Part shown: positions 4,000-63,986 of the stretch, one piece after another | Position numbering within the stretch: position 1 is the first letter of the stretch | How the letters are laid out: each line of letters opens with the position of its first letter | Source of the DNA: an uncultured Gammaproteobacteria bacterium | GTDB taxonomy: Bacteria; Patescibacteriota; Microgenomatia; Levybacterales; UBA12049 | Assembly (NCBI GenBank): GCA_964490105.1 | Contig: CAZAZU010000001.1 | Location: 22,706-86,705 of the forward strand | Length of the DNA stretch: 64,000 bases | Direction of reading: 5' to 3' | Translations under genes and position numbers: made by a program | Notes under the pieces: model-generated | Database searches by the model: none | The model's input: only the letters and a program-made list of their open reading frames with translations | What the model was told of the DNA's origin: nothing

Positions 4000-5521
4000 T
4001 AAAAAAATATTTGTCGTAGACTTCGGCGGACAAACCGCTCACCTCATAACTCGACGTCTTAAAGATCTAGGAATTAATTCTCAGTTAATTGATCCTGAAA
4101 ATGCCGTAAAAATTTCATTGAAAAATAAGCCATCGGGTTTGATCTTTTCCGGTGGGCCAGCATCTGTTTACGAAACTTCTGCCCCAACAATTGATGTAAA
4201 AATATTTGAACTCGGTTTACCCATACTTGGAATTTGTTATGGCTGGCAGCTTATGGCTCATCTACTTGGTGGGGAAGTGGAGTCGGGAAATAAAGAATAT
4301 GGGCCAACTATATTAACAATTTCAGGATTTGATTCTTTGTTTTATGGTCTTCCGAATTTTACAAAAGTAATTGAATCACATGGAGATACTGTTAAAAAAA
4401 TGCCATCAGGATTTGTGGTGACAGCAAAAACTGAAACCGTAAAATTTGCTGCTGTAGAAAATCCTAAGAAAAAATTATACGGAGTGCAGTTTCACCCTGA
4501 AGCACATCATTCAGAAAAAGGATCTGAGATGCTCAAAAATTTCGCAACTCGTGTATGTAATTTAGGGCTGTCTCCTCAGAAATTAGACACAGATGAAATC
4601 ATTAATGAAATAAAAGAAAAAGTAGGAAATAAAAAAGTGATTGGTGCTTTTTCTGGCGGAACTGATTCTGCTGTGGCTGGAGCATTAGTCGCAAGAGCGA
4701 TCGGGAAAAATTTTATTCCATTTTTTGTAGATTCAGGTCTTATGCGGGAAGAAACAATCGGAAGAATTGAAAAAGATTTTCCAAAAGTCTTAGGTGTACC
4801 GGTCGAAATAATTTCAGCCCGTGAATTGTTTCTTGCGCGACTTAAAGGATTGACTGATCCGGAGGAAAAAAGAAAAGCAGTTGGAAAATTATATATAGAA
4901 CTTTTTGAAAAAGAAATGAAAAGACATAAGGATGCGATTTTTCTTCTTCAGGGTACAACTTATGCGGATTTTATTCATTCGCAGGGAACTAAATTATCAG
5001 CGAGAATTAAATCTCATCATAACGTAGGAGGTTTGCCTAAAGAAATGAAGCTAAAATTACTTGAGCCTCTTAGATTTTATTACACAGATCAGGTAAGAGA
5101 AATTGGAGTTAAAATTGGACTTCCTCGTGACATGGTTTATCAACAGCCTTTTCCTGGACCTGGGCATGCAGTAAGAATTGTAGGAGAAGTGACCCCCGCA
5201 CGGCTTAAACAGCAAGTTCAGGCAGATGGGATAGTAGTTGAGGAGCTTAGAAAATCAGGTTGGTATAAAAAAGTTTTTCAATGCTGGTCTGTTATGACTG
5301 GGACAAATTCTACAGCGGTAAAAGGAGACGGGAGGTTTTATGGAGAAGTGATAGCTATAAGAATTGTTAATAGTAAAGATAGAATGACTGCGGAAATTGC
5401 ACGAGTTCCTTTCCCAGTTCTTGAAAAAATTGCATCTCGAATAGTAAATGAAGTTCCAAATGTTTCGCGAGTAGTTTATGACATTACCTCTAAACCTCCA
5501 GCAACAATGGAATGGGAATAA
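3962..5521 (+). CDS. guaA: GMP synthase (glutamine amidotransferase + ATP pyrophosphatase)
   Basis: KKIFVVDFGGQ, GICYGWQLM, HPE, P-loop GAFSGGTDSAV; true start may be the ATG at 3980. Confidence 0.9.
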   Translation: MTYLSQMQDKTTNKKIFVVDFGGQTAHLITRRLKDLGINSQLIDPENAVKISLKNKPSGLIFSGGPASVYETSAPTIDVKIFELGLPILGICYGWQLMAHLLGGEVESGNKEYGPTILTISGFDSLFYGLPNFTKVIESHGDTVKKMPSGFVVTAKTETVKFAAVENPKKKLYGVQFHPEAHHSEKGSEMLKNFATRVCNLGLSPQKLDTDEIINEIKEKVGNKKVIGAFSGGTDSAVAGALVARAIGKNFIPFFVDSGLMREETIGRIEKDFPKVLGVPVEIISARELFLARLKGLTDPEEKRKAVGKLYIELFEKEMKRHKDAIFLLQGTTYADFIHSQGTKLSARIKSHHNVGGLPKEMKLKLLEPLRFYYTDQVREIGVKIGLPRDMVYQQPFPGPGHAVRIVGEVTPARLKQQVQADGIVVEELRKSGWYKKVFQCWSVMTGTNSTAVKGDGRFYGEVIAIRIVNSKDRMTAEIARVPFPVLEKIASRIVNEVPNVSRVVYDITSKPPATMEWE

Positions 5522-5641
5522 GACGAATTTTCAATTTCTAATTTTTAATTTTCAATGAATGTTTCAAATATTAAATTTTAAAACATTTGGATTTGAATAA
5601 GAATTCCAAATTTCGAATTTAAAATTAGTTTATTTTGCCTG

Positions 5642-5670
5642 TTGCAATAGTCTAAATTCGTTTGTATACT
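5642..5670 (+). promoter_or_regulatory. promoter TTGCAA-17-TATACT for glyA, followed by a 12-nt leader with GGAGAG
   Basis: Read from sequence. Confidence 0.5.
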
Positions 5671-5682
5671 CGGAGAGAATTG

Positions 5683-7002
5683 ATGAACAATTTAAAGAAA
5701 ACTGACCCTCAAATTTACAACCTCGTAAAAGACGAAGAAAAAAGACAATTAGAAGTCCTCGAAATGATCCCCTCAGAAAATTACACATCCTCCTCGATTC
5801 TTGAGGCGCTTGGAACAGTTCTTAACAATAAGTATTCTGAGGGATATCCTAAGAAAAGATACTACCAGGGAAACGCAGTTGCCGATGAAGTAGAGCAGTT
5901 AGCAATTGATCGCGCAAAAAAACTTTTTGGTGTGCCATTCGCTAACGTTCAGGCTTTATCTGGAGCACCTGCGAATTCGGCAGTACAGATGGCAGTTTTA
6001 AAACCAGGGGACACACTTATGGGATTGTCACTAGCTTTTGGGGGTCATCTCACACATGGTGCGCCAAAAACATTTTCGTCCACCTTTTTTAGAGCAGTCC
6101 AATACGAATTAGATAAAAACGGAAAATTTGATTTTGACGCAATTCTTAAGCTTGCTAAAAAAGAAAAACCAAAATTAATTATTTGCGGTTTTACTGCATA
6201 TCCTAGAACAATTGATTTTAAGAAATTTGCAGAAGTAGCCGATAAGGTTGGGGCATTTTTACTTGCAGATATTTCTCATATAGCAGGTTTGGTCGCTGCA
6301 GGAGTCCATCCTTCACCAGTTAATCATGCACATATTGTTACAACCACGACTCATAAGACTTTAAGGGGTCCTCGCGGAGCAATAATAATGGTAACTAACA
6401 AGGGGCTAAAAAAAGACTCAGAGTTGAGAAAAAAGATTGATAGTGCGATTATCCCGGGTTTGCAGGGTGGACCACATGATAACCAGACAGCAGCTATAGC
6501 AGTAGCACTCAAAGAAGCATCAACTGCAAGCTTTAAAAAGTACTCCGCACAGGTGGTAGCGAATTCAAAAGCACTTGCAAAAGCATTAAATGGATATGGT
6601 TTTGATTTGGTATCAGGAGGATCTGATAATCATTTAATTCTTATAGATTTAAGAAATAAAAATGTGGATGGTGCGACTGCTGCAATCGCACTAGAAGTTG
6701 CAGGAATAGTTCTAAATAAAAATGGTGTGCCGTTTGATCCAAGTCCTCCTTTTTATCCAGCAGGAATTAGGCTTGGAACTCCAGCAATTACTACTCGAGG
6801 TTTGAAAGAAAAAGATATGCTAAAAGTGGCCAAATGGATGAATGATGCTATAGAAGAGGTGGTAGGGAAAAACTTACCAACAGACAAGGAAGAAAGAAAA
6901 GAATACTGGATAAATTACAAAGCAAGTGTTTGGAAAAACAAAAAACTTTTAGGAATTGGCGCCGAAGTAAAATCCTTAATGAAGAAGTACCCTTTGCCCT
7001 AA
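5683..7002 (+). CDS. glyA: serine hydroxymethyltransferase
   Basis: PSENYTSSSILEALGTVLNNKYSEGYP, PLP-lysine region TTTTHKTLRGPRG; the ORF-track start at 5662 is a TTG, whereas the ATG at 5683 (MNNLKK) fits the SHMT N-terminus. Confidence 0.92.
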   Translation: MNNLKKTDPQIYNLVKDEEKRQLEVLEMIPSENYTSSSILEALGTVLNNKYSEGYPKKRYYQGNAVADEVEQLAIDRAKKLFGVPFANVQALSGAPANSAVQMAVLKPGDTLMGLSLAFGGHLTHGAPKTFSSTFFRAVQYELDKNGKFDFDAILKLAKKEKPKLIICGFTAYPRTIDFKKFAEVADKVGAFLLADISHIAGLVAAGVHPSPVNHAHIVTTTTHKTLRGPRGAIIMVTNKGLKKDSELRKKIDSAIIPGLQGGPHDNQTAAIAVALKEASTASFKKYSAQVVANSKALAKALNGYGFDLVSGGSDNHLILIDLRNKNVDGATAAIALEVAGIVLNKNGVPFDPSPPFYPAGIRLGTPAITTRGLKEKDMLKVAKWMNDAIEEVVGKNLPTDKEERKEYWINYKASVWKNKKLLGIGAEVKSLMKKYPLP

Positions 7003-8357: not shown

Positions 8358-8810
8358 ATGGCAATCGATATTGAATTATTAAAACAAATTAGAGAAGAGA
8401 CCTCAGCGTCTATCGCGGATTGCAGAAAAGCATTAGAAGAATCAAACGGAGATTATAAAAAAGCAATCGAATGGCTTCAAAAAAGAGGAGCAGAAATTGC
8501 TGAGAAGAAAGCAGACCGCGAAACCTCACAAGGTATAGTAGAATCATATGTTCATGGTGGAGGAAAAATCGGAGTAATTGTAGCTATTCTTTGTGAGACA
8601 GATTTCGTAGCTAGAACTCAAGAGTTTAAAGATCTTGCGCATGAAATAGCTATGCAAATTTCCGCAATGAATCCAAAAAATGTAGAGGAACTTCTTTCTC
8701 AGGAATATATTAGAGATCCAAAGCTTAAGATAGAAGATTTAGTGAAAGCTACAATTGGAAAAACAGGAGAGAATATAAAAGTTAGAGAATTTTCTAGAAT
8801 TGAACTGTAG
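8358..8810 (+). CDS. tsf: elongation factor Ts, short form (150 aa)
   Basis: LKQIREETSASIADCRKALEESNGDYKKAIEWLQKRG...LCETDFVART. Confidence 0.9.
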   Translation: MAIDIELLKQIREETSASIADCRKALEESNGDYKKAIEWLQKRGAEIAEKKADRETSQGIVESYVHGGGKIGVIVAILCETDFVARTQEFKDLAHEIAMQISAMNPKNVEELLSQEYIRDPKLKIEDLVKATIGKTGENIKVREFSRIEL

Positions 8811-34337: not shown

Positions 34338-34481
34338 ATGCCACAATCAACACGTGGAAGAGGATGGTTTGGGGATTCTGAAGCTCATTCAAAAGCTGGC
34401 AGAAAAGGCGGACTTGCTAGAAGTAGAAAAGTCAGCTTAAGCAATGAAAACATCCAAAATAATAAGGCCAATCGTAATTAA
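34338..34481 (+). CDS. KGG-repeat stress-induced small protein (YciG-like, 47 aa; not in ORF track)
   Basis: RGWFGDSEAHSKAGRKGG matches the KGG stress motif; strong SD GGGAGGAGGTG 8 nt upstream. Confidence 0.6.
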   Translation: MPQSTRGRGWFGDSEAHSKAGRKGGLARSRKVSLSNENIQNNKANRN

Positions 34482-34501
34482 TGCCTTCGTTTGCAAATTA
34501 T

Positions 34502-34533
34502 AACAGCCCTGCAATAAGGGCTGTTATTTTTTT
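34502..34533 (+). terminator. rho-independent terminator AACAGCCCT-gcaata-AGGGCTGTT + TTTTTTTT
   Basis: 9-bp GC-containing stem, 6-nt loop, 8-T run. Confidence 0.8.
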
Positions 34534-34774
34534 GGTAAACCCTTGCAATTTTCTTACCAGATTAAAAATTATATTTAACAATAGAACACTATTATGTGTA
34601 TATGAAAACATTAACATACACTCAAACACCAGTTATTAATTTTGTAATGCCAAGAGTTTCTGTTAAAAATCATTTAAAAAATATTAATTCTGATTTAGGA
34701 AAATATGTTCCCAAAAAAGTGTCACACACATTTAAAAGCTTCATGATTATATTTACGTATCAGGTTTAAAAAGT

Positions 34775-35320
34775 ATGGGAAACATTATAGGAGTCTTTCC
34801 AGATAAGGAGGCAGCAGATGTTGCCTTTTTTAATTTAACGAAAGCCGGTTATAGAAGCCAGGATGTTTCTGTAATCCTAAAAGAAGAGCTGATTTTAAAT
34901 AAAGAACAGGGACAGAAGGGCGGAATTGCATCAACATATTTTTCGGTAACCAATACCGTTAATGGGGCGGTAAAGGGGATTAGCAGAATTGCATCAGGGT
35001 TAAGTGCGATTTTCATTCCAGGACTCGGTGCTGTAATAATTGCCGGTCCCTTAGCATCTGTGTTGGGAGTTACACGAGCAACAGCAGTCACGATCTCAGG
35101 AGTTATAACTGGTGTCCTGTCAGGTGGTTTAGCAGCCGGGCTAATTGAGTTAGGATTCAAAAAAGGCAATGCAAATTTTTACGAAAAGCTTGTTAATAAG
35201 GGCGGGGTCGTAGTTTGTGTTCCAGTTATTAAGGATTATAGCCCTGATCAAATAAGACAAATTTTTATGGAAAACGGGGGAAGCTATATTAAGGAATTAG
35301 GTACTAAAAGATATAAATAG
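34775..35320 (+). CDS. general stress protein 17M (YflT)-like N-terminal domain fused to glycine-zipper membrane segment
   Basis: GVFPDKEAADVAFFNLTKAGYRSQDVSVI; GLGAVIIAGPLASVLGVT...GVLSGGLAAGLI glycine-rich TM. Confidence 0.5.
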   Translation: MGNIIGVFPDKEAADVAFFNLTKAGYRSQDVSVILKEELILNKEQGQKGGIASTYFSVTNTVNGAVKGISRIASGLSAIFIPGLGAVIIAGPLASVLGVTRATAVTISGVITGVLSGGLAAGLIELGFKKGNANFYEKLVNKGGVVVCVPVIKDYSPDQIRQIFMENGGSYIKELGTKRYK

Positions 35321-35416
35321 AAATCTTCAGGCTAAGCTCCGTGTAAATTCTTACCGATCTCTTACTTGTTTTTAATTAAAAGTAATGTAAGAATTGTGAG
35401 AAAATAGATAAGTAAT

Positions 35417-36079
35417 ATGGTTCAAAATATTTTATTAGTTGAAGACGATAAAAATATCAGAGAATTTGTTCAGCAGGCACTTCTTGAAGCGGGATTTAAG
35501 GTAGTTTCGACACCTGATGGGGCCCAAGCATTAAAATTAATTAAAGACGGAAATGTTGATTTGGTAGTTTTGGATTTAGGAATTGAAAGTATAAGCGGGG
35601 AAACTGTTTGTATAGAAGCAAAGAAGATGTATCCCGATCTACCAATCATTATTCTAACCGCAAAAAATAAAGCAGAAGATGTAGTGACCGGATTAGGATT
35701 AGGAGCAGATGATTATATTTCAAAACCATTTGATCTTGAAGAACTATTAGCGAGAATAAGGACTCGTTTGAAAAAAAATACTTCACACCTGTTAGAAATA
35801 GATGATCTAAGATTAAATACTCAATCATTGGAAGTATTTAGAAATGATAAGAAGATTGATTTAACCGCAAAGGAAATTAGACTATTAGAATACTTAATGA
35901 CTAACAAGGGAGTTGTGTTAAGCCGTGAAAGAATCCTAAATCATATTTGGGCTTATTCACCAGATGTAGAAACTAGAGTAGTAGATGTTTACATCGGTTA
36001 TTTACGAAATAAAATCGATAAGGGGCATAGCAGGCCTCTTATTGAATCGGTTCGTGGATTCGGTTATGTAATAAAATAA
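35417..36079 (+). CDS. OmpR-family two-component response regulator
   Basis: Receiver ILLVEDD...LVVLDLGI; winged-helix LTAKEIRLLEYLMTNKGVVLSRERIL...GFGYVIK. Confidence 0.9.
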   Translation: MVQNILLVEDDKNIREFVQQALLEAGFKVVSTPDGAQALKLIKDGNVDLVVLDLGIESISGETVCIEAKKMYPDLPIIILTAKNKAEDVVTGLGLGADDYISKPFDLEELLARIRTRLKKNTSHLLEIDDLRLNTQSLEVFRNDKKIDLTAKEIRLLEYLMTNKGVVLSRERILNHIWAYSPDVETRVVDVYIGYLRNKIDKGHSRPLIESVRGFGYVIK

Positions 36080-37315
36080 CTACTCTGTATCTGGGATTTG
36101 GTAGCTTCTGGGGTCTGGTGTTTTTCTCTCAACAGTTATTTGTTCCGAAAGACTAATTCTTCGTGCAACTTCACGATTCGTAGAATCATCTTTAGAAACA
36201 ACAACTCTCACGTGTTCAGTAGATAAAGGTGGTTCGCTTGTTTTATCATAGCCTCCGCCAGAGGCTAATATTAGACCTAATTGACTTGTTATACCCGCTA
36301 ATCCAGCTTCTTTTCCTCTAACTACGAGCGTTGGTGTTCTGGGATCAGTTGGTAGAATATCAATTCCGTATCTATCGAGTTCTTGTGTTAAAATTCCTTT
36401 AGCATGAGCAATTTTTGGACGCACGTCTAAAAGATGCGGTAAGACAATTCCATTTTGCCATAGCGCATTTATTAGAAGTCCGCTTTGACCTCTAATGTAT
36501 CTGTCTCCCATAGCTCGTTCAAAATTCGGTCCTATGGAATTATGCATAATTGCTATTCCAAAACCCAACCCCGGAAGCCCCAGCGTCTTTGAGGCATCTC
36601 TATAAACCCTAAGTCTTCCGTTAGTCATAGTTTCTTTAGCTAAAGACTCTTCGTCATCTGCTACATCTAGTCCTACTTCATCAGCCTCAACGATAGTTCC
36701 TTTAGAAGTAAAATGGTTAACAAATTTTAATGAAGCATTTCGACTTGCTATATCGCCTTTAAAATCAGCGCGGGCAAAATAAATACTTGCAAGTTTTATA
36801 GGTCTTTTTTCATGTTGCTCAATTACATTTTCTAAAGCCTCATCTGCGGATAAATTAATGTTAGGGGAGTAAGGGAATGGTAACAAACCGCCAATTATTT
36901 GAAGTTGAGTCAGGTATCCAGGATAATGTGGTCCAACTTCAGCTGCTCTCGGTGGATTTTTAGGGTTTTTCGGAATTAGGATTAGTGAAGTTCTGAGGAG
37001 TCCGTCAACTCCTGTGCCAGAATTAAAAACCACATGTGATCTTTCATCTAATCCAAATCTTTCTCCTACCGCATCTCGCGCAGGGGCAAGATCTGGAGAC
37101 CAATACGTTTCCCGTGCTCTTCTTCCCTCGTCGCTTGAGAGTATTCCTATTTCTCGTTCTTCCCATCCTCTCGGAGAGCCAAACGGAGAGATGCCATCAA
37201 CTAGCTCAATTTTCGGTAAATTACCAGAAATAATTTCTCTTTCTCCATAAGAGCGAGCGACCTTTATAGTTCTGTTTCCTCGGGGTATTCCCCGTAAATC
37301 TTCTTGGTTTGCCAT
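36080..37315 (-). CDS. class I/II aminotransferase-fold protein (HisC/CobD-like), divergent; possibly non-catalytic
   Basis: RDASKTLGLPGLGFGIAIM aligns to the RTLSKAFALAGLRCGF PLP-lysine segment; VEADEVGLD ~ VVADEAY; FNSGTGVDGLL ~ SRGADEGIELL; but NPTG, Tyr and Arg positions appear substituted. Confidence 0.5.
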   Translation of the reverse strand: MANQEDLRGIPRGNRTIKVARSYGEREIISGNLPKIELVDGISPFGSPRGWEEREIGILSSDEGRRARETYWSPDLAPARDAVGERFGLDERSHVVFNSGTGVDGLLRTSLILIPKNPKNPPRAAEVGPHYPGYLTQLQIIGGLLPFPYSPNINLSADEALENVIEQHEKRPIKLASIYFARADFKGDIASRNASLKFVNHFTSKGTIVEADEVGLDVADDEESLAKETMTNGRLRVYRDASKTLGLPGLGFGIAIMHNSIGPNFERAMGDRYIRGQSGLLINALWQNGIVLPHLLDVRPKIAHAKGILTQELDRYGIDILPTDPRTPTLVVRGKEAGLAGITSQLGLILASGGGYDKTSEPPLSTEHVRVVVSKDDSTNREVARRISLSEQITVERKTPDPRSYQIPDTE

Positions 37316-37391
37316 AACAGGTGATTATTTTAGTTATGTAAGAACTTTATTACAAGTAATAAAACAAATATTTGATAGAATACGCATGTAA

Positions 37392-38639
37392 ATGCCATAT
37401 ATTGTAAGGGACAAAATATTATTTCTTTCTTCTGCCAGTAAGATTCTCTCATCTAGTCTTGATTACCATATGACCTTAACAAGCATAGGTGAGCTTATCG
37501 TGGAGTCGGTTGCGGATTTCTGTACAATAGATATTTTGGAAAACGGAAAACTTGAACGTGTGGTGGTTAGAATGTCAGATGAAAAGAAAGACAGCGAAGC
37601 TCAAAAATTTCATGATTTTCCGTCCGACCCAAAAAATAAAAACGCTACTTATGACGCTATCCGGCTTGGCAAACCCATAATAATTAATAAAGTTAATAAT
37701 AAATGGATTAATTCAGTTTCTAAAATTAAAGAAGAAAGAGAGCTTATGAAAAAATTTAATTTTTCCTCATTTATGTTTATTCCGCTTCAAAGCAGGGGAC
37801 AAGTTATTGGAGTTATGACGATTGGTTCCATCCAAAAAGACTTTACGTATTCGGAAGCGGATTCAATATTCATTAAGGAACTTGCAGACAGAGCAGGGAT
37901 AACTATAGATAAAGCCAAGCTTTATACAGAAGCGCAGGAGGCAATTAGAATTAGAGACGAATTTTTGTCTATCGCATCACATGAATTGAAAACTCCTTTA
38001 ACTTCGATATTGCTAAGTTTACAGTTAATCTTAAGAAGACTTGAAAAAAGTACTCATAAGACAGTTGAATCTGAGGAAATTTTTAAAGCGATTGAGATAA
38101 GCATAACGCAAAGCAAACGCATGTCCAGGCTTATTAATGATCTGTTAGACGTTTCCTTGATTACTTCGAATTATTTTCAGATTGATCCGGAGGAAGTTAA
38201 TCTTACTGGACTCTTAAAAGATGTAGAAATGAAGTTCGAAGTAATTCTAAAACACAAAAACATTAATTTAGTAATTAAAGAAAAAGAAGAAAACATTATA
38301 GGTAATTGGGATAGGGTTAGAATCGAGCAGGTAGTTTCTAATCTTATTTCAAATGCTATTAAATATGGAAATGGGAAACCCATATTATTAAAAACAGAAG
38401 TCCAAGGAGACTATGTGTTAATAAAAGTTAAAGATAAGGGAATAGGGATAAGAGATGAAGATAAAGAAAGAATTTTTAAAGTTTTTAACAGAGGGTTGGA
38501 TGCAAAAAATTATAAAGGAATTGGAGTTGGACTTTTTATTTCAAAAAAAATAACAGATGCACACAAGGGAGAATTAGGAGTCGCAAGTAAATTAGGTAAT
38601 GGATCTACTTTTACTGTTAAACTTCCTGTAAAAAAATAA
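37392..38639 (+). CDS. cytoplasmic sensor histidine kinase with N-terminal GAF domain
   Basis: H-box SHELKTPLTS; HATPase N/G boxes (NAIKYG, GIGIRDEDKERIF, GIGVGLFISKKI); no TM helices. Confidence 0.88.
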   Translation: MPYIVRDKILFLSSASKILSSSLDYHMTLTSIGELIVESVADFCTIDILENGKLERVVVRMSDEKKDSEAQKFHDFPSDPKNKNATYDAIRLGKPIIINKVNNKWINSVSKIKEERELMKKFNFSSFMFIPLQSRGQVIGVMTIGSIQKDFTYSEADSIFIKELADRAGITIDKAKLYTEAQEAIRIRDEFLSIASHELKTPLTSILLSLQLILRRLEKSTHKTVESEEIFKAIEISITQSKRMSRLINDLLDVSLITSNYFQIDPEEVNLTGLLKDVEMKFEVILKHKNINLVIKEKEENIIGNWDRVRIEQVVSNLISNAIKYGNGKPILLKTEVQGDYVLIKVKDKGIGIRDEDKERIFKVFNRGLDAKNYKGIGVGLFISKKITDAHKGELGVASKLGNGSTFTVKLPVKK

Positions 38640-38722
38640 TTTCTTTCACTCCTATTACTTTTTCTTAGCAAAATTCACACCGCTAAGCATTAAAGTTAAT
38701 GTTTAGAGAGGGGGTGAGATAA

Positions 38723-38893
38723 ATGAACGATCCAAAAACAAATCAGAACTCAGGACAGAATCAATCAGATCTAAATCAAAACGATTCTGAGCAGGTTGAT
38801 CAAGGGATAGCCGGAGGAATTGCCACAACTGAAGATACTCAGGTTGATACTAATATCAATCAGTCAGAAGATGACATGAGTAGGGAAGAGTAA
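38723..38893 (+). CDS. small acidic Asn/Gln/Asp-rich hypothetical protein (56 aa; not in ORF track)
   Basis: Strong SD AGAGGGGGTGAG 4 nt upstream; followed by terminator hairpin. Confidence 0.45.
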   Translation: MNDPKTNQNSGQNQSDLNQNDSEQVDQGIAGGIATTEDTQVDTNINQSEDDMSREE

Positions 38894-38914
38894 GTGGTAA
38901 CCTTCAAGGCTTAT

Positions 38915-38944
38915 AAACAAACCGCACGCTTATGCGGTTTGTTT
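38915..38944 (+). terminator. terminator hairpin AAACAAACCGCA-cgctta-TGCGGTTTGTTT, probably bidirectional
   Basis: 12-bp perfect stem, T-rich 3' side; lies between convergent genes. Confidence 0.65.
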
Positions 38945-38945
38945 A

Positions 38946-39437
38946 TTAATTAACTGAGCTTGAAGCGGAATTTTTCCCAATCAGTATTTTATTTAGCAAA
39001 TTAACGCTTTCATTTAGTGCGGATTTAAAAAACATTTTATCTTTTTTATCTATTTTTATTTTTATGTGATAGGTTCCTTTAGTATCCCTCTTCCAATCCC
39101 ATTCAGTGACACCGGTAAATGAAGCTTTACGATATCCGTTTTTTACTTTTATCTGACATAAGTATTCAAGAATTATGTGTTCAAATAAATGTCCAATTTC
39201 TGTATTTCTGACTTCTTCTCTGAATGGAAGATTTGAATCATTAAAGCATTCATTGTGTAGGACCTGAGGCAACGTCCTTTCTAAGATTGAATGTGTTAGC
39301 GGAAGATGTTTGGTATGAAAATGAGGAGTATCTAAGAGCATGGTAATGCTCGTTTCCTGGGAAGAAAAATTATTTACTGCCAATTTATACTGACCGTAAT
39401 TAGTAAATGTCTGGTTAATATCTTGGATAATGCTCAT
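38946..39437 (-). CDS. hypothetical protein (163 aa)
   Basis: ORF with native composition; no motif recognised. Confidence 0.5.
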   Translation of the reverse strand: MSIIQDINQTFTNYGQYKLAVNNFSSQETSITMLLDTPHFHTKHLPLTHSILERTLPQVLHNECFNDSNLPFREEVRNTEIGHLFEHIILEYLCQIKVKNGYRKASFTGVTEWDWKRDTKGTYHIKIKIDKKDKMFFKSALNESVNLLNKILIGKNSASSSVN

Positions 39438-63642: not shown

Positions 63643-63704
63643 TCTTACGAATTGCTTACATAATTTAGCATTTTATTTTAACATCATTTCCCTAGAATAG
63701 CCTT

Positions 63705-63986
63705 ATGACAGATACAAAGAAACAAGATATAGTAAATCCAATAGCAGCAGCAGTAACTGGAGCCGCGCTCGGTGCAGGAGTAGCAATCGCTGGAGCTATC
63801 GCCTTAAAAGATGAAAAAAATAGAAAAAAAGTTAAAGAAGTCTTAAATAATCTAAAAGATAGGGGAGAAGAGATGCAGAAGGATTTAAAGAAAGACGCGA
63901 AAGATGCAAAGGGTGACGTTAACGGAAAAATAGATGAGGTTAAGGAAGATGCAGAAGATAAAAAACCAAAAGAACTGACATCATAA
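63705..63986 (+). CDS. YtxH-like small protein (Gly-zipper N-terminus, Lys/Asp/Glu-rich tail)
   Basis: IAAAVTGAALGAGVAIAGAIAL then charged coiled region. Confidence 0.5.
   Translation: MTDTKKQDIVNPIAAAVTGAALGAGVAIAGAIALKDEKNRKKVKEVLNNLKDRGEEMQKDLKKDAKDAKGDVNGKIDEVKEDAEDKKPKELTS

Follow-up and report, generated by a model that had tools for sequence, protein, structure and literature searches.

The closest described analogues of the locus reported here are the alpha-hydroxyketone signalling clusters CqsA/CqsS of Vibrio and LqsA/LqsR/LqsS of Legionella (PMC3376566). In those clusters the gene for a pyridoxal phosphate (PLP) enzyme lies beside that of a sensor kinase, and a comparable adjacency between an aminotransferase-like (AT-like) gene and a histidine kinase (HK) gene occurs at 12 loci, one of them in a 64,000-nucleotide stretch of contig CAZAZU010000001.1 (hereafter the window, to which all positions refer unless another locus is named). 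Both CqsA and LqsA are enzymes of the alpha-oxoamine-synthase branch, and the kinases that accompany them sit in the membrane and sense a secreted signal. By contrast, the protein encoded in the window is HisC/CobD-like and the kinase beside it is soluble, with a single GAF domain, which sets the locus apart from the Cqs/Lqs type. A second precedent comes from MocR/GabR, where a fold-type-I aminotransferase domain that has kept its PLP lysine serves as a ligand sensor and not as a metabolic enzyme (PMC6917764, PMC6677901). The AT-like protein also keeps the PLP lysine of the fold-type-I aminotransferase domain but, whereas the aminotransferase domain of MocR is fused to a winged helix-turn-helix DNA-binding domain, here it forms a separate protein encoded beside a two-component system, for which a sensing role is hypothetical. 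HisC and CobD, finally, share its fold and give its best profile match, although its scores against the HisC and CobC/CobD equivalog models are far below the cut-offs and its gene lies in a signalling cassette and not among his or cob operon genes. In the literature, we found no description of a cassette composed of HK, AT-like and response regulator (RR) genes.

A histidine kinase paired with an aminotransferase-fold protein

Comparison with related genomes suggests that this region is a conserved locus in Patescibacteria (Microgenomates type), the core of which would be a three-gene HK–AT–RR signalling cassette with the following elements:

35417..36079, forward strand: OmpR/PhoB-family RR, 220 aa (Pfam, NCBIfam)
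36080..37315, reverse strand: 411-aa HisC/CobD-like fold-type-I aminotransferase-fold (AT-like) protein with an apparently remodelled PLP pocket
37316..37391, no strand assigned: HK–AT divergent promoter region, 76 nt (AT-like: -35 TTGTAA, -10 TAAAAT; HK: TG-extended TAGAAT)
37392..38639, forward strand: soluble GAF-HisKA-HATPase_c HK, 415 aa

The open reading frames (ORFs) between 34.3 and 39.4 kb, an AT-rich region (GC ~30-43% around the module), lie exactly where an earlier reading of the window (hereafter the original prediction) had placed them, and each is also a called gene in public collections. The two signalling proteins are of the types that had been proposed, an OmpR regulator and a cytoplasmic GAF-HisKA-HATPase kinase. 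The RR matches Response_reg (E 3e-28) and Trans_reg_C (E 1e-26) and aligns over its full length to the PhoB and MtrA models. The HK contains HisKA (3.5e-15), HATPase_c (6.8e-26) and one GAF domain (GAF_2, 2.1e-9), and inspection of its sequence revealed no hydrophobic stretch of transmembrane length. Compared with solved structures, this GAF domain gave only generic GAF matches (E >= 3e-4) and no clue to a ligand.

We examined the gene neighbourhood at 14 loci from relatives labelled as Patescibacteria or Candidatus Levyibacteriota (Microgenomates group), or 15 loci with the window. Four true family loci came from a search for related loci, from which 76 ordinary HisC/CobD-type genes of other phyla were set aside. 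Adjacency to a kinase could be scored at 13 loci; it could not be scored at L089, a contig with the gene of the family member P0050 that ends before the upstream side. An HK orthologue lies divergently beside the AT family gene in 12 of these 13 informative loci (the window, L001, L002, L003, L004, L006, L007, L008, L085, L090 and the P0017 and P0019 loci). The AT-adjacent kinases score between 143 and 750 bits against the window HK, the two lowest being partial kinase fragments of 105-111 aa, and across the sequenced loci identity to the window ranges from 27-58% for the AT-like protein and from 39-85% for the HK. L002 is syntenic with the window over the whole gene order of the region, whereas the genes that flank the pair vary among loci and include TopA/SpoU, LeuD/IDH, UDG, and a P-type ATPase with HSP20. 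Mere local synteny was rejected as an explanation of the RR-AT-HK order because the pairing persists with different flanks in L004, L085, L090 and the P0019 locus. Two more distant family members, P0060 and P0042, have MR_MLE and M20 peptidase genes as neighbours instead.

The position of the RR is less constant. It lies tail-to-tail with the AT-like gene in eight loci (the window and seven related ones), with a gap of +5 to -33 nt, and in the window the two stop codons abut with 0 nt between them (36079/36080). The conservation of the RR-(AT-like)-HK arrangement therefore holds for the HK–AT side in 12 of the 13 informative loci and for the abutting RR in eight, but not in five HK–AT loci that have no adjacent RR (L004, L006, L007, L085 and L090). 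The original prediction had treated the regulator and the kinase as a two-component pair that another gene splits, a picture that does not hold. In these genomes the AT gene is the most constant neighbour of the HK, even in the five loci that lack an adjacent RR, and an adjacency that survives among differing flanks indicates that the AT gene is a conserved member of the cassette, not an insertion.

Fold and family of the AT-like protein

The class-I aminotransferase fold that had been proposed for the 411-aa gene is well supported. A word-index homologue search with the AT-like protein retrieved a single relative, P0002, with 58% identity, whereas a profile search run exhaustively over 1.84 billion representatives yielded 87 relatives (E<=1e-10 for 49), and a clade-profile search added just one further family member. 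An alignment of 60 AT family sequences provided the basis for all residue counts given below and for an AlphaFold2 (AF2) model with a mean predicted local distance difference test score (pLDDT) of 92.3 and a predicted template modelling score (pTM) of 0.90; with a two-sequence alignment, the pLDDT was only 36.5. The top Foldseek matches of this model are the histidinol-phosphate aminotransferase HisC and CobD (E 1e-19 to 1e-17). HisC, CobD and aspartate aminotransferase (AspAT) together match at E 1e-16 to 1e-19 with template modelling (TM) scores of 0.61-0.82, the large and small domains of the fold both being present, and the AT family profile matches HisC from the PDB with an E value of 1.8e-28. 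In Pfam, the window protein itself has no match at E<=1 and thus does not reach the PF00155 gathering threshold, but 58 of its 60 aligned family relatives do match PF00155. Against the NCBIfam CobC/CobD models it scores 20.5 and 19.8 bits, the cut-offs being 360 and 290.

Active-site residues

To map the active site, we aligned the Escherichia coli HisC sequence, taken from its genome record, to the AT family hidden Markov model (HMM) with hmmalign, using HisC residue numbers that we assumed and that fell on the expected motifs. Much of the catalytic apparatus is in place. The AT-like protein keeps Y71 (HisC Y55), D104 (D85), the ring-stacking Y131 (Y110), D212 (D184), S242 (S213) and K243 (K214), as well as, by motif, Y23 (Y20) and R370 (R335). 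The Schiff-base lysine K243, in an S-x-S-K motif, is invariant in the family (60/60), as the original prediction had anticipated for the window protein, and the pyridine-N1 aspartate D212 occurs in 59/60 sequences. Y23 and R370 are also found in 60/60. R370 corresponds to the arginine that binds the substrate carboxylate (R386 in AspAT, R335 in HisC), with HVRVVV in the window protein aligned to CLRITV in HisC, which refutes the earlier claim that the substrate-binding arginine had been lost.

Other positions have changed with respect to HisC, namely F185 (HisC N157), G215 (Y187), D240 (T211), G251 (R222) and V103 (A84). Two of them concern PLP O3', since F185 and G215 replace the asparagine that precedes P-x-G and the tyrosine of the DEAY motif; in the family, position 185 is T, N or S and position 215 is F in 33 sequences and Y in 11. 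Two others concern phosphate binding, where D240 and G251 stand in place of the Ser/Thr three residues before the lysine and of the arginine eight residues after it. In addition, the window protein has R182, A183 and E367 where the family has N, P and R. The predicted losses of the NPTG motif (now R182, A183, F185) and of the DEAY tyrosine (G215) are therefore real, with the qualification that the family mostly has F, not Y, at the latter position. V103, R182, A183 and E367 were found in only 2-3 of the 60 sequences and are common to P0002. A further change affects the whole family: the equivalent of HisC R322 is missing, replaced by A, T or V (A351 in the window protein), and the AT family is therefore not a histidinol-phosphate enzyme.

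The loss of R251 follows a pattern. Among the 60 sequences, 22 lack this arginine and 18 of these have an arginine at position 275, which is R in none of the 38 sequences that retain R251, and the swap recurs in several separate clades of the neighbour-joining tree. Position 275 presumably belongs to the segment that, in AspAT, reaches into the active site of the neighbouring subunit. This covariation suggests that the phosphate-binding arginine has moved from 251 to 275, and the correlated replacement can be argued to reflect a pocket still under selection. The charge changes of the window lineage also appear paired, R251G with R275 and N182R with R367E and S240D. As judged from these residues, the pocket seems to have been rebuilt and not just inactivated.

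Evolutionary rate

The AT-like protein has only 40% identity to its L002 counterpart, whereas the HK, RR and GSDH proteins have 85%, 93% and 84%, respectively, so that the AT-like gene is the fastest-evolving one of the locus. The same is seen in the nonsynonymous distances (dN), 0.65 for the AT-like gene and 0.05-0.10 for HK, RR and GSDH; dN was used alone because synonymous distances (dS) are saturated in every gene, which makes dN/dS uninformative. The distances are also incongruent among genes: the AT-like protein is nearer to that of L001 (58%) than to that of L002 (40%), whereas RR and HK are nearer to those of L002 (93% and 85%) than to those of L001 (83% and 77%), which implies either an acceleration in the L002 lineage or an exchange of the AT gene.

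Promoters, convergent junction and a candidate regulatory box

HK and the AT-like gene are transcribed from predicted back-to-back promoters close to both start codons, both leaders being very short, and this layout is kept in L001, L002, L003 and L008 with intergenic regions of 51-84 nt. In the Levyibacteriota locus L006, the spacer between HK and the AT gene (5502-5889) measures 388 bp, compared with ~75 bp, and contains several copies of a ~90-bp repeat (AATCTGCTATGACACTCC...GGTGACATATCAGATT). Three tandem ~20-bp units (GCTTAAACGAAGTTAAGG) occur at the contig end of L089 (1-60), upstream of the P0050 aminotransferase gene. At the opposite end of the AT-like gene, a hairpin fold scan detected no terminator-grade hairpin at the junction with the RR. 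In the absence of a strong hairpin the two convergent transcripts must overlap, antisense at their 3' ends, and such an overlap of the RR and AT-like mRNAs could cause transcriptional interference.

A direct repeat, TCTTAC-N5-TCTTAC, is perfect upstream of the RR gene in three genomes (the window, L002 and L001), and variants of it precede other genes of the region:

34541..34557, forward strand: CCTTGC-N5-TCTTAC, a candidate RR box within the small-ORF/YflT-like operon promoter, conserved in L002 (8736-8752)
35349..35365, forward strand: TCTTAC-N5-TCTTAC, the mismatch-free direct repeat ahead of the RR gene; its inverted partner lies at 35376-35392
38642..38658, forward strand: TCTTTC-N5-TATTAC, a candidate RR box ahead of the acidic peptide gene, conserved in L002 (4661-4677)
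39441-39457: candidate box at the CphA-N-like gene, conserved in L002

With up to two mismatches (<=2), the box occurs 19 times in the window, compared with 7.6 +/- 2.8 expected, a number reached in 0 of 100 shuffles, and nine of the 19 matches fall within 33.1-39.5 kb. The heptamer TTCTTAC taken by itself shows no enrichment (17 occurrences in the window, 12.8 expected), so that the enrichment is confined to the direct repeat with its 11-bp phase. The conserved boxes support the existence of a putative local regulon. About 25 kb from the module, a one-mismatch box (TCTTAC-GAATT-GCTTAC, 63643-63659) precedes a TAGAAT -10 element by 33 nt and is followed by the gene of a 93-aa protein (63705-63986, forward strand) that combines a single hydrophobic helix rich in Gly and Ala with a charged tail and for which full-length DUF948 and YtxH matches remain below threshold (E 0.08-0.19). 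This gene may be another member of the regulon.

Possible roles of the AT-like protein

We favour, tentatively, a role of the AT-family protein on the input side of the kinase. The protein would make, remove or hold a cytoplasmic metabolite of the amino- or oxo-acid type, which the GAF domain of the HK would read, and the RR would then act on the TCTTAC-N5-TCTTAC boxes before its own gene and before the surrounding small stress-type genes. In the lineage of the window the pocket would have been remodelled through the paired changes described above (N182R, S240D, R367E, and R251G with R275). Since the Schiff-base lysine, the pyridine-N aspartate, the stacking tyrosine and the C-terminal arginine have all been kept, a retuned binder or a slow enzyme seems likelier than a dead relic. 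A more specific version, which we regard as improbable in its entirety, would have the AT-fold protein act as a separate ligand receptor of the soluble HK, with PLP still in use or already lost. It would amount to a split two-component counterpart of MocR/GabR, conserved across Microgenomates-type Patescibacteria, with a pocket retuned by lineage and an antisense feedback at the terminator-less RR junction.

Several observations weigh against an input role. A conserved divergent arrangement is just as typical of regulators with the genes that they control. The HK–AT intergenic region contains no more of the box than a half-site, T(C/A)TTAC, which overlaps the -35 element of the AT-like gene. 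The dN of the AT-like gene is about six times that of the HK gene (0.65 vs 0.10), an unusual rate for a protein bound to an obligate physical partner. The residue has changed at four PLP contacts, one of them the phosphate-binding Ser/Thr, now an Asp, and PLP binding may be absent altogether. Moreover, the loci sampled are a subset of the AT family.

As an alternative, the AT-family gene may be an output under regulation, as in a classic divergent pair of regulator and target. A metabolite sensed by the GAF kinase would then be metabolised by the product of the AT gene, which the RR would switch on. We consider this possible, though on the doubtful side. It would agree with the back-to-back promoters and their conserved short intergenic region, with the half-site at the AT-like -35, with the full catalytic motif set that most AT family members have kept, and with the purely metabolic context of a sister clade (MR_MLE and M20 peptidase genes). 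However, the AT gene stays with the HK in the five loci where the RR is not adjacent, the full box was not found in the AT-like promoter, and the cofactor pocket of the window copy is eroded.

Another alternative is the pseudo-enzyme that the original prediction had already raised. In this lineage the protein would have lost its PLP chemistry and would be left to slow decay or to a scaffold role only. The lack of a Pfam match for the window protein, the four replaced PLP contacts, the rare residues that it has in common with P0002, and its fast evolution in comparison with the HK, RR and GSDH proteins (40% vs 84-93% identity against L002) all point in this direction. Nevertheless, the 411-aa frame is intact and its fold is predicted with high confidence; K243, D212, S242, Y131, Y71, Y23 and R370 have been kept, also in P0002, which is 58% identical, although synonymous sites are saturated; and the charge changes look paired, the loss of R251 being matched by R275. 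The pseudo-enzyme proposal is half supported, by the changed contacts F185, G215, D240 and G251 but not by the residues that have been kept, and we think it unlikely. That the protein is an ordinary HisC- or CobD-type metabolic enzyme, adjacent to the HK without functional meaning, is very unlikely: HisC and CobD are indeed its nearest structures and profiles, but it scores only ~20 bits against NCBIfam CobC/CobD models with cut-offs of 290-360, the whole family lacks the HisC R322 equivalent, and the adjacency persists in 12/13 informative loci despite changed flanks.

Small peptides and other neighbouring genes

The cassette is surrounded by several small genes and hairpins:

34338..34481, forward strand: 47-aa basic peptide with a single KGG-like motif, RGRGWFGDSxxHSKAGRKGGLARS, and a strong Shine-Dalgarno sequence, GGAGGAGGTG
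34500..34527, forward strand: intrinsic terminator, hairpin with an 11-bp stem followed by a T-run (fold z = -5.5)
34602..34769, forward strand: 55-aa small ORF (57 aa from the GTG at 34596), 5 nt upstream of the YflT-like gene
34775..35320, forward strand: 181-aa YflT-like protein, in which an N-terminus with weak resemblance to YflT is followed by a hydrophobic central part rich in Gly and by a small domain at the C-terminus
38723..38893, forward strand: 56-aa acidic peptide with a strong Shine-Dalgarno sequence, GGGGGTGA
38913..38946, no strand assigned: 14-bp hairpin common to the convergent acidic-peptide and CphA-N-like genes (z = -4.0)
38946..39437, reverse strand: 163-aa stand-alone protein similar to the N-terminal domain of cyanophycin synthetase (CphA-N-like; PF18921, 30.9 bits, above the cut-off of 27)

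The translation and termination signals that had been described for the 47-aa and 56-aa peptides are present, in the first case GGAGGAGGTG followed by a hairpin with a T-run and in the second GGGGGTGA with the 14-bp hairpin. The 34500-34527 hairpin is kept in L002 with a compensatory change of C:G to T:A. An Rfam scan of the window identified no RNA family.

The proposed assignment of the 47-aa peptide to the KGG stress proteins fares less well. We found 15 homologues of 42-55 aa in Patescibacteria, and the resulting family of 16 proteins has the core [RK]G[RK]GWFG[DN]..H..AGRKGGLARS. The peptide motif G-x-G-x-F-x-D-x(4)-S-x-AGRKGG resembles repeat 1 of YciG, a KGG-repeat stress protein of E. 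coli (PF10685), but the peptide is basic and has a single motif instead of repeats, and none of the 16 members matches the Pfam KGG model, even at E<=10. The sole support for KGG is an hhalign comparison with YciG repeat 1 (P 0.0011, 55% identity over 22 columns, probability 20%). We consequently call the peptide KGG-like, on the basis of motif resemblance only. The YflT name suffers from a similar weakness: the 181-aa protein matches PF11181 with 16.8 bits, below the gathering score of 26.2 (E 0.0096, residues 4-38 only), and its L002 orthologue, 58% identical, has a faint match. At the same position in the P0019 locus, a 191-aa gene with a confident YflT match is followed by an HSP20 gene.

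Between the terminator of the KGG-like peptide and the YflT-like gene lies the 55-aa small ORF, which was absent from the original prediction. Its counterpart in L002 is a called gene of 58 aa at the same position (8523-8699, reverse strand) with conserved N and C termini, and the two follow the pattern MKT[LI]TYT...PKKVSHT..F..[IV]FTYQV (55-58 aa), which has no match in Pfam. Its promoter (CTTGCAA / TATTAT) is conserved and its leader is nearly nil. At the other end of the module, the 56-aa acidic peptide is 71% identical in L002, and genes of 57-60 aa occupy its position in the P0017 and P0019 loci. The CphA-N-like gene accompanies the cassette in L002 (3864-4355), the P0017 locus and L006 (7205-7738). 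In L006 it lies immediately downstream of the aminotransferase gene. As a whole, the notion of a co-located stress and signalling module appears reasonable in view of the gene order that is syntenic in L002 and of the TCTTAC-N5-TCTTAC box common to several promoters, but the KGG and YflT names on which part of it was built lie below HMM thresholds.

Implications for signalling in Patescibacteria

To our knowledge, regulators are very scarce in Patescibacteria, and hardly any of their signalling inputs have been characterised. A kinase that has an aminotransferase-fold protein as its most faithful genomic partner would open a concrete way to test what is sensed by these reduced cells. Such a kinase would represent, moreover, a third route, after Cqs/Lqs and MocR, by which the aminotransferase fold has been recruited into signalling, while the repeated R251/R275 swap provides a natural experiment on the rebuilding of a PLP phosphate or substrate pocket.

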